Sequence record: NC_031103.1
Length of the DNA stretch: 64,000 bases
Source of the DNA: Escherichia phage vB_EcoM-UFV13
Reading direction: 5' to 3' (one strand)
This document shows, one piece after another, positions 37,811-38,641 of this stretch. A program made the translations under genes and the position numbers. Within the stretch, counting starts at the first letter, position 1, and the number at the start of each line of letters is the position of its first letter. The notes beneath the pieces are model-generated. The model saw nothing but the letters and a program-made list of their open reading frames with translations, searched no databases and was not told where the DNA came from.

Positions 37811-37886
37811 TGGTCGAGGCAGTAGGGATCGAACCTACGACCTAGGACTTAGAAGGTCCTTGCTCTTCCTTCTGAGCTATGCCTCG
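37811..37886 (-). tRNA. tRNA-Arg (anticodon TCT)
   Basis: Hand-folded cloverleaf: 7-bp acceptor CGAGGCA/TGCCTCG, anticodon loop CTTCTAA, T-loop TTCGATC, encoded CCA. Confidence 0.8.
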
Positions 37887-37890
37887 TATT

Positions 37891-37965
37891 TGGCGGACGT
37901 GATAGGATTCGAACCTATAACCAATCGCTTAACAGGCGATCGCTCTGCCATTGAGCTACACATCC
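37891..37965 (-). tRNA. tRNA-Asn (anticodon GTT)
   Basis: Acceptor GGATGTG/CACGTCC, anticodon stem ATCGC/GCGAT, loop CTGTTAA, T-loop TTCGAAT, encoded CCA. Confidence 0.75.
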
Positions 37966-37969
37966 AAAT

Positions 37970-38056
37970 TGGTGGGGAGTGATGGAGTCGAACCACCCGA
38001 GTCGCAATGACAATGGATTTACAGTCCACACCGCTACCTCTACGGGATAACTCCCC
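37970..38056 (-). tRNA. tRNA-Tyr (anticodon GTA), long variable arm
   Basis: Acceptor GGGGAGT/ACTCCCC, anticodon loop CTGTAAA, variable arm TGTCATTGCGACTCG resembling bacterial tRNA-Tyr, encoded CCA. Confidence 0.75.
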
Positions 38057-38068
38057 TAATTCATAATT

Positions 38069-38143
38069 TGGTGGCCCTGGGTGGAATTGAACCACCATCT
38101 GGCGATTATGAGTCGCTTGCTTGAACCTTCCAGCTACAGGGCC
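38069..38143 (-). tRNA. tRNA with CAT anticodon (Ile2-type or Met)
   Basis: Acceptor GGCCCTG/CAGGGCC, anticodon loop CTCATAA, T-loop TTCAATT, encoded CCA; the T4 tRNA-Ile uses CAU. Confidence 0.7.
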
Positions 38144-38144
38144 T

Positions 38145-38220
38145 TGGTGCTGATTGACGGAATCGAACCGCCGACCTTCTCATTACAAGTGAGTTGCTCT
38201 ACCTACTGAGCTAAATCAGC
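38145..38220 (-). tRNA. tRNA-Thr (anticodon TGT)
   Basis: Acceptor GCTGATT/AATCAGC, anticodon stem ACTCA/TGAGA, loop CTTGTAA, encoded CCA. Confidence 0.8.
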
Positions 38221-38225
38221 AAAAC

Positions 38226-38315
38226 TGGCGGAGGCGATAGGATTTGAACCTATGAGTCGCCGGAGCGACTGCCGGTTTTCAAGACCGGTGCATTAAACCA
38301 CTCTGCCACGCCTCC
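38226..38315 (-). tRNA. tRNA-Ser (anticodon TGA), long variable arm
   Basis: Acceptor GGAGGCG/CGCCTCC, anticodon stem CCGGT/ACCGG, loop CTTGAAA, encoded CCA. Confidence 0.8.
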
Positions 38316-38317
38316 AG

Positions 38318-38391
38318 TCTCCATACAAGGATTTGAACCTTGGACCTCCTGATCCCAAATCAGGCGCTCTACCAAACTGAGCTACACGGAG
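38318..38391 (-). tRNA. tRNA-Pro (anticodon TGG)
   Basis: Acceptor CTCCGTG/TATGGAG with two G-U pairs, anticodon stem CCTGA/TCAGG, loop TTTGGGA; CCA not encoded. Confidence 0.7.
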
Positions 38392-38401
38392 TAAATTAAA
38401 T

Positions 38402-38475
38402 TGGAGCGGATAATGAGAATCGAACTCACATCATCAGATTGGAAGTCTGAGGTAATACCATTATACGATATCCGC
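38402..38475 (-). tRNA. tRNA-Gly (anticodon TCC)
   Basis: Acceptor GCGGATA/TATCCGC, anticodon stem TCAGA/TCTGA, loop CTTCCAA, encoded CCA. Confidence 0.75.
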
Positions 38476-38480
38476 AAATT

Positions 38481-38567
38481 TGGTGCGAGAAGTGGGACTC
38501 GAACCCACAAGGAAATCATTCCGCAGCATTTTAAGTGCTGTGCCTTTACCAATTTGACCATTCTCGC
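38481..38567 (-). tRNA. tRNA-Leu (anticodon TAA), long variable arm
   Basis: Acceptor GCGAGAA/TTCTCGC, anticodon stem CAGCA/TGCTG, loop CTTAAAA, encoded CCA. Confidence 0.8.
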
Positions 38568-38568
38568 G

Positions 38569-38641
38569 CTGGGAATAAAGGACTCGAACCTTTGCATCCT
38601 GGAATCAAAATCCAGTGCCTTACCAACTTGGCTAATTCCCA
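38569..38641 (-). tRNA. tRNA-Gln (anticodon TTG)
   Basis: Acceptor TGGGAAT/ATTCCCA, anticodon stem CTGGA/TCCAG, loop TTTTGAT; CCA not encoded. Confidence 0.7.

Follow-up and report, generated by a model that had tools for sequence, protein, structure and literature searches.

The DNA analysed here, a stretch of 64,000 nt from Escherichia phage vB_EcoM-UFV13 (sequence record NC_031103.1; the whole stretch is referred to as the window), carries ten contiguous tRNA genes on its minus strand at 37811-38641. Taken as a whole, this array is very probably the ordinary Tequatrovirus tRNA cluster in its version without the homing endonuclease gene segB. When applied to the complete 64-kb window, ARAGORN called only these ten genes; all of them are encoded on the minus strand, and their transcription order is Gln, Leu, Gly, Pro, Ser, Thr, CAU, Tyr, Asn and Arg (the seventh is designated by its CAU anticodon). 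Neighbouring genes are separated by gaps of 0-12 nt, and there is no N base within the cluster. All ten genes reached the curated gathering cut-off of the Rfam tRNA family (RF00005, 29 bits), nine of them with 59-74 bits and tRNA-Tyr with the lowest score. A first-pass annotation, made by hand folding from the sequence alone, had proposed ten tRNA genes with almost no spacers between them; its order, anticodons and coordinates were all correct, and no evidence contradicts the identification of the ten genes, which are listed below in transcription order with the Rfam scores.

38568-38641, minus strand: tRNA-Gln (UUG), ARAGORN, Rfam 67.4 bits
38481-38567, minus strand: tRNA-Leu (UAA), ARAGORN, Rfam 59.3 bits
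38402-38475, minus strand: tRNA-Gly (UCC), ARAGORN, Rfam 65.8 bits
38317-38391, minus strand: tRNA-Pro (UGG), ARAGORN, Rfam 66.8 bits, CCA not encoded
38226-38315, minus strand: tRNA-Ser (UGA), class II, ARAGORN, Rfam 62.6 bits, CCA encoded
38145-38220, minus strand: tRNA-Thr (UGU), ARAGORN, Rfam 72.9 bits
38069-38143, minus strand: tRNA with the anticodon CAU, Ile2-like, ARAGORN
37970-38056, minus strand: tRNA-Tyr (GUA), class II with a long variable arm, ARAGORN, Rfam 30.2 bits
37891-37965, minus strand: tRNA-Asn (GUU), ARAGORN, Rfam 74.1 bits
37811-37886, minus strand: tRNA-Arg (UCU), ARAGORN, Rfam 68.1 bits

The folds of tRNA-Tyr and tRNA-Asn, on which the interest of the first-pass annotation centred, were both accepted by ARAGORN and by Rfam with undisrupted anticodon arms; since the software did not reject them, the two genes are real. 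Their 7-nt anticodon loops (CUGUAAA in Tyr, CUGUUAA in Asn) are intact and each is closed by a 5-bp stem, and the CCA end is encoded in both genes. The discriminator bases, A73 in Tyr and G73 in Asn, are those expected by the respective synthetases under the tRNA identity rules. Alignments with phage and E. coli homologues, which were small (8 sequences for Tyr and 5 for Asn), showed compensatory changes at 7 of the 24 base pairs of Tyr and at 13 of the 22 base pairs of Asn. The 30.2-bit score of tRNA-Tyr, close to the cut-off, and one mismatched position in its D stem could be taken as signs of a decaying pseudogene; class II tRNAs, however, often have a D stem of 3 bp, and such decay is highly improbable for a gene that has a complete cloverleaf, an intact anticodon loop, an encoded CCA end and compensatory changes at seven pairs of its stems, that is almost invariant across hundreds of phages, and whose T6 homologue, differing by 2 nt, was detected by northern analysis and is biologically active (PMC13096335). 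A permissive Rfam scan also listed the Tyr stretch as a tRNA-Sec-like RNA, because only the best family of a clan was kept; under the gathering thresholds the stretch belongs to RF00005, and the tRNA-Sec assignment was rejected.

The CAU tRNA is most likely a tRNA-Ile2, predicted from its sequence to be a lysidine-modified reader of AUA. It is 76% identical to E. coli ileX, as compared with 63% for metT/metU, and the 15-nt core of its anticodon arm, GCGACTCATAATCGC, is the same as in ileX. Read against the generally known determinants of TilS, its acceptor stem begins with GGCCC and contains the pairs C4-G69 and C5-G68, as in tRNA-Ile2. Since G1 is paired with C72, the CAU tRNA is not an initiator. 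On the grounds of the higher identity to ileX, the shared anticodon arm core and the G1-C72 pair, an assignment as elongator or initiator tRNA-Met was rejected; of the two identities that the first-pass annotation had allowed for this gene, Ile2 or Met, only Ile2 was retained.

According to its annotation, T4 has eight tRNAs, with neither Tyr nor Asn among them, and the additional genes of the window lie between the CAU tRNA and tRNA-Arg; both points had been made in the first-pass annotation. It had also placed the extra genes in a spacer between the Ile and Arg genes of T4, and this picture had to be revised. The T4 "spacer" is segB, a 666-bp gene for a GIY-YIG homing endonuclease (T4 annotation, Pfam); as a selfish gene, it took the place of two tRNAs. 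Nor were the extra tRNAs simply inserted at this place. The homology to T4 ends after the first 12 nt of the CAU gene, at position 38132 of the window (megablast query position 322), and resumes past tRNA-Arg, which delimits the following block.

37811-38131, minus strand: block without close T4 homology, comprising most of the CAU gene, Tyr, Asn and Arg (megablast, three-way alignment)

Opposite this 321-bp block (the CAU gene minus the shared first 12 nt, Tyr, Asn and Arg), T4 has an 849-bp Ile-segB-Arg stretch. Because the flanking CAU and Arg genes also differ from their T4 counterparts, with only 61% identity in each case, we describe the difference as a block substitution and not as an insertion. 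In other respects the window resembles T4, namely in the position and orientation of the cluster, the upstream promoter region, rnaC, rnaD and the terminator. In the alignment, the Leu, Gly and Pro genes were identical to those of T4, Ser and Thr were near-identical, and Gln was 88% identical; tRNA-Ser has an encoded CCA end in the window, whereas in T4 it does not.

T6 is intermediate between the window and T4. The gene order in T6 is Gln, Leu, Gly, Thr, T4-type Ile, Tyr, segB and T4-type Arg. T6 lacks the Pro and Ser genes, its Ile and Arg alleles are of the T4 type, and segB occupies the position held by Asn in the window, while Tyr is kept and is 97.7% identical to that of the window, with the same variable arm. 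The Arg allele of the window differs from those of both T4 and T6. The T6 record annotates a tRNA-Thr (locus L005, 4643-4717) at a place where ARAGORN makes no call. A tblastn search of the window with T4 SegB revealed no significant homologue (best E = 0.085), and because the window has no segB, amplification of tRNA-Tyr in cis driven by SegB is impossible here, in contrast to T6. In T2, the CAU-Tyr-Asn-Arg stretch is near-identical to that of the window, with an identical Asn gene and a single difference in Tyr. T2 differs from the window by two ORFs that the window lacks, one of 133 aa that takes the position of tRNA-Thr (L003, 1840-2241) and an extra one of 116 aa that directly follows Arg (L003, 1132-1482). 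Neither matched a Pfam family; they probably correspond to the pair of T2L ORFs of unassigned function in the 2008 paper cited below (PMC2330249).

The relation between segB and the tRNA genes has a published explanation. Brok-Volchanskaya et al. (2008) reported that segB is missing from T2L, RB1 and RB3 and that these phages have additional tRNA genes, with Tyr and Asn described among them (PMC2330249). The SegB target was found to be a 27-bp sequence around the T-loop motif GGTTCRANTCC, with the preferred recognition and cleavage site lying wholly inside the tRNA-Asn gene, at its 3' end; upon co-infection with T4 and T2L, segB was inherited at close to 100% and T2L markers were lost (PMC2330249). 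A motif scan against this published text description gave a candidate for the preferred site in the window.

37889-37915, minus strand: candidate preferred SegB site, GGTTCGAATCCTATCACGTCCGCCAAA, 27 bp, at the 3' end of tRNA-Asn

The candidate site, GGTTCGAATCCTATCACGTCCGCCAAA, contains the GGTTCRANTCC motif and a CCAR element. Its differences from the tRNA-Ser site are at five positions, G6, A16, G18, A26 and A27, which are precisely those given in the 2008 study (PMC2330249). Since this candidate site in Asn is intact, the phage appears to carry the uninvaded recipient allele. In the series of events that we propose, SegB, with its preference for cutting at the 3' end of tRNA-Asn, would have its own gene copied in; CAU-Tyr-Asn-Arg would thereby have been replaced by Ile-segB-Arg in T4, and in T6 segB would have come to lie where Asn lies in the window.

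The distribution of the cluster agrees with its assignment as a common form. The window is part of a Tequatrovirus genome, as shown by the 95-96.5% identity of a 25-kb stretch to several phages of this genus, and the 831-bp cluster is 100% identical to that of Shigella phage Sf23. At least 80% of the cluster is covered in 396 phage records. The annotated ten-tRNA clusters of Sf23, GiZh and RB7 match the window in locus, in the ten genes and in their order, and in the GiZh annotation the ten tRNAs are followed by rnaC and a terminator. Contiguous Tyr and Asn genes are present in 394 phage records, as against 126 records with a full-length segB. The ten-tRNA arrangement is therefore already known and, as a common Tequatrovirus form, nothing unusual. 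As a discovery it carries little weight, being annotated in hundreds of genomes and having had its relation to T4 and segB explained in 2008 (PMC2330249). Its value lies in correcting the view of T4 as the reference state of T-even tRNA clusters. In a frequent variant with eleven tRNAs (e.g. phage REP4, L006, 681-756), tRNA-His(GUG) and a 113-bp spacer are inserted between the Asn and Arg genes. Of the four E. coli tRNAs that have a G34-U35 anticodon and carry queuosine, three are those for Tyr, Asn and His.

The first-pass annotation had considered the Tyr and Asn genes to be either ancestral or newly acquired, and of these options the former is the better one. In Dhakavirus JS10, CAU, Asn and Arg are contiguous at the syntenic site, the Asn-Arg spacer is also 4 nt long, and the genes are 92% (CAU), 82% (Asn) and 91% (Arg) identical to those of the window. 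The cluster of a distant Klebsiella T4-like phage (L016) contains both Tyr and Asn, with a Tyr acceptor stem that is the same as in the window, and Asn is also found in the syntenic clusters of a Karamvirus (L015) and a Moonvirus (L014). Because of the CAU-Asn-Arg arrangement of JS10, the Tyr and Asn genes of other Tevenvirinae and the ratio of 394 to 126 records, the eight-tRNA state of T4 looks derived and appears to be the minority state; the authors of the 2008 study likewise concluded that it is derived (PMC2330249). The Tyr and Asn genes would then be long-standing members of the cluster.

Several further copies of these genes were noted during the comparisons. Moonvirus NM4.3 (L014, 2001-2107) and Karamvirus VPA32 (L015, 2001-2092) each have a stretch 87-92% identical to the window tRNA-Tyr without an ARAGORN call; these copies may be damaged, or may have been overlooked by the caller, which did call the corresponding stretch of L016. 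In Vequintavirus bov22_2 (L008, 1486-2298), the Thr and CAU genes are adjacent with a 1-nt spacer, as in the window. Phage-plasmid-like E. coli plasmids of ~110 kb (e.g. pEC881_2, 109 kb; L004, 1454-1700) carry the genes Asn-Tyr-Thr, the Tyr gene being 94.3% identical to that of the window. The presence of nearly the same genes in unrelated coliphage lineages suggests that tRNA blocks move laterally among coliphage families.

What the cluster may do for the phage was considered in terms of translation and of defence. Codons were counted in 67 ORFs of the window (16,079 codons), and the plus-strand ORFs, which are late (baseplate) genes, were compared with the minus-strand ORFs. Eight of the anticodons (UUG, UAA, UCC, UGG, UGA, UGU, CAU as Ile2, and UCU) read codons ending in A, and the frequency of these cognate codons in the plus-strand late ORFs is 1.1-1.9 times that in the minus-strand ORFs. 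The eight tRNAs may thus serve A-ending codons that are heavily used by this AT-rich phage, especially in its late genes, whereas the Tyr and Asn tRNAs would serve residues that are abundant in the predicted phage proteins. Tyr accounts for 4.6% and Asn for 6.2% of the codons, the corresponding values for the E. coli proteome being ~2.8% and ~3.9%; UAU makes up 79% of the Tyr codons and AAU 76% of the Asn codons. The first-pass annotation had suggested a look at the late genes for these two residues, and an excess was found for Asn (7.1% vs 5.6%), while Tyr hardly differed (4.7% vs 4.5%).

Recent work adds counter-defence as a second role of such tRNAs. Chihara et al. (2026) found that PtuAB of the Septu system cuts tRNA-Tyr in the variable arm, that overexpressed T6 tRNA-Tyr restores plating on Septu and that deletion of the tRNA-rich region of T6 raises its sensitivity; T4, which lacks Tyr, cannot escape Septu, whereas T2 is resistant, and Septu also cleaves the tRNA-Tyr of T6, which acts by dosage (PMC13096335). 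In the literature, restored phage growth on hosts with PtuAB is documented for T6 and T5. The identity of the window tRNA-Tyr with that of T6 extends over the variable arm cut by PtuAB, and with T6 as the experimental precedent the Tyr gene may act as insurance against defences that cut tRNAs. The AriB nuclease of PARIS cleaves E. coli tRNA-Lys, tRNA-Thr(UGU) and, secondarily, tRNA-Asn(GUU) at UAAUC^N (^ marks the cleavage site; the host numbering is U36-A-A-U39-C40^N41), and T5 variants of the tRNAs targeted by AriB rescue infection (PMC12409363). At this site, the UAAUCC of E. coli asnT is replaced by UAAGCG in the window tRNA-Asn (U39 to G), and the UAAUCA of the E. coli tRNA-Thr by UAAUGA in the window tRNA-Thr (C40 to G). 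The T5 tRNA variants acting against PARIS and retron-Eco7 (PMC11464382, PMC12409363) are phage copies of nuclease-targeted tRNAs, and the window likewise carries such copies (Tyr, Asn, Thr); unlike the anti-PARIS set of T5, it has no tRNA-Lys. From these substitutions we infer a possible role of Asn and Thr against AriB, and the resistance of the two variants to the nuclease is speculation. That Thr, Tyr and Asn make up an anti-defence module, in which Tyr would buffer PtuAB (of Septu and of retron-Eco7) and the U39G change of Asn and the C40G change of Thr would resist AriB, is a doubtful proposition. If it were true, SegB homing into tRNA-Asn would cost the invaded phage part of its counter-defence, and this cost would help to explain why segB-free clusters are ~3x more common. 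The counter-defence value of the Asn and Thr variants and the fitness cost of segB invasion are points of mild remaining interest, as is the movement of tRNA blocks from one phage family to another.

Several observations weigh against an ancestral cluster that serves both translation and counter-defence. JS10 has no Tyr gene between CAU and Asn, and the Tyr and CAU genes of the window are closer to genes of Vequintavirus bov22_2 (96.6% and 98.7% identity, respectively) than to those of the genus-level outgroups; since tRNA blocks are exchanged laterally between phage families, the term "ancestral" is blurred for Tyr specifically. As to function, the GUA and GUU anticodons duplicate host decoding, so that Tyr and Asn fall outside a rare-codon rationale and the case for supply is less strong for them than for the readers of A-ending codons, and the use of Tyr codons is nearly equal in late and early ORFs. 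A single copy of Tyr may protect only partly, because the T6 tRNA-Tyr is cleaved and acts in a dosage-dependent manner. Both functional roles are ones that we infer, and are hence indirect. The first of these observations would fit a history in which Tyr, together with the CAU/Thr block, came laterally from unrelated coliphages (rV5-like Vequintavirus, T5-like phages or SSU5-like phage-plasmids) and only Asn-Arg is ancestral. The 1-nt Thr-CAU spacer shared with Vequintavirus and the 94.3% identity of the phage-plasmid Tyr point in the same direction, and homing endonucleases that cut the conserved T-loop may have promoted the transfer, as SegB recognises a T-loop motif found in nearly all tRNA genes (PMC2330249). 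We nevertheless consider such an entry unlikely, since the direction of transfer could equally have been outward from the T-even phages and a Tyr gene with the same acceptor stem lies in the syntenic cluster of the distant T4-like phage L016; in any case, it would alter the history of the genes and not their identity.

Recent capture of Tyr and Asn from the E. coli chromosome is, by contrast, effectively refuted by sequence comparison, although the anticodons are the same as in the host genes and all 5,426 of 5,426 E. coli genomes give some blastn match to the stretch. Identity to the genes of E. coli K-12 is only 67% for Tyr (tyrV) and 62% for Asn (asnT), and nearly all E. coli records match only within the 60-80% identity band; the 12 of 12 top-listed E. 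coli matches (79-80%) are plasmids of ~72-112 kb with an Asn-Tyr-Thr cluster. The low identities, the 394 phage records with Tyr and Asn and the syntenic occurrence of these genes in other Tevenvirinae genera also leave the first-pass option of a new acquisition without support. On the functional side, the extra tRNAs could provide translational supply for the AT-rich genome and nothing else, without any part in anti-defence. The shares of Tyr and Asn codons, the dominance of UAU and AAU, and the higher frequency in late ORFs of Asn and of all A-ending cognate codons favour this possibility. However, the effects of deleting the tRNA-rich region of T6 and of overexpressing its tRNA-Tyr on Septu (PMC13096335), the contribution of T5 tRNA-Asn to escape from PARIS (PMC12409363) and the presence of G39 in the window tRNA-Asn, where the AriB site motif has U39, make supply as the sole function questionable. 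An ordinary, segB-free cluster whose tRNAs may contribute to both supply and counter-defence is the reading that we prefer.

The Gln gene presents a separate case of allelic difference, as the window tRNA-Gln differs from that of T4 in the anticodon arm alone. The window allele has the stem CUGGA/UCCAG and the loop UUUUGAU, the latter being the same as in E. coli glnU, whereas T4, T2 and T6 have the stem UAGCA/UGCUA and the loop CUUUGAC; the stems of both alleles are fully paired. The window type was found at at least 99% identity in 289 records, and 127 records were in the 80-90% identity band, to which the T4 allele belongs. Since phage Pu-Krd-SF3 joins the window-type Gln with segB, the Gln alleles are not tied to segB. 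The two alleles could reflect selection by some putative nuclease acting on the anticodon arm.

The cluster is syntenic with its counterparts in GiZh and T4, whose annotations agree in placing it between the e.8/rnaC/rnaD side and the trna.2-trna.4/ip/57B/57A side, and the flanking ORFs of the window match the PHROG families of trna.2, trna.3, trna.4, the internal virion protein and 57B. The following elements were identified next to the tRNA genes.

38711-38735, minus strand: putative MotA-type middle promoter (TGCTTTA at 38735-38729 and TATTAT at 38716-38711, 12-bp spacer)
37690-37806, minus strand: homologue of rnaD, the species 2 small stable RNA (blastn of T4 rnaD, 87% over 118 nt)
37545-37683, minus strand: homologue of rnaC, the species 1 small stable RNA (blastn of T4 rnaC, 97.8% over 139 nt)
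37471-37494, minus strand: intrinsic terminator closing the tRNA/rnaD/rnaC unit (10-bp stem, 7 of its pairs GC, and a T run behind it)

The promoter elements were read by eye from the sequence on the published T4 pattern; in the alignment, the sequence upstream of tRNA-Gln, including the putative promoter stretch, was essentially identical to T4, in which a middle promoter just 5' of the cluster drives transcription through to the species I RNA (PMC2330249). A sigma-70 scan upstream of the cluster, with a tool that excludes T4 middle promoters, gave one weak match, which is below the number obtained in shuffled sequences. In GiZh, a terminator is annotated at the corresponding place, as is rnaC. 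By analogy with T4, the ten tRNAs, rnaD and rnaC would form a single minus-strand unit that extends from the middle promoter before Gln to the terminator past rnaC, and its transcript would be cut to mature tRNAs in the way established for T4, by RNase P and the 3' processing enzymes of the host.

Just downstream of this terminator, two ORFs of 188 aa (36262-36828, minus strand) and 157 aa (36947-37420, minus strand) match PHROG family 2280, to which no function is assigned (E = 1e-53 and 1e-57, respectively). Compared with each other by BLASTP, the two products have in common only the N-terminal motif MK(S/T)YA(Q/E)FL(N/T)EA. T4 has no counterpart of these ORFs between e.8 and rnaC. The window contains 21 scattered single N positions (e.g. 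37205, 37229, 37340, 37349 and 37593), of which one lies in rnaC (37593) and four lie in or near the 157-aa ORF. The two-ORF stretch is common in Tequatrovirus, at least 80% of it being covered in 117 records.

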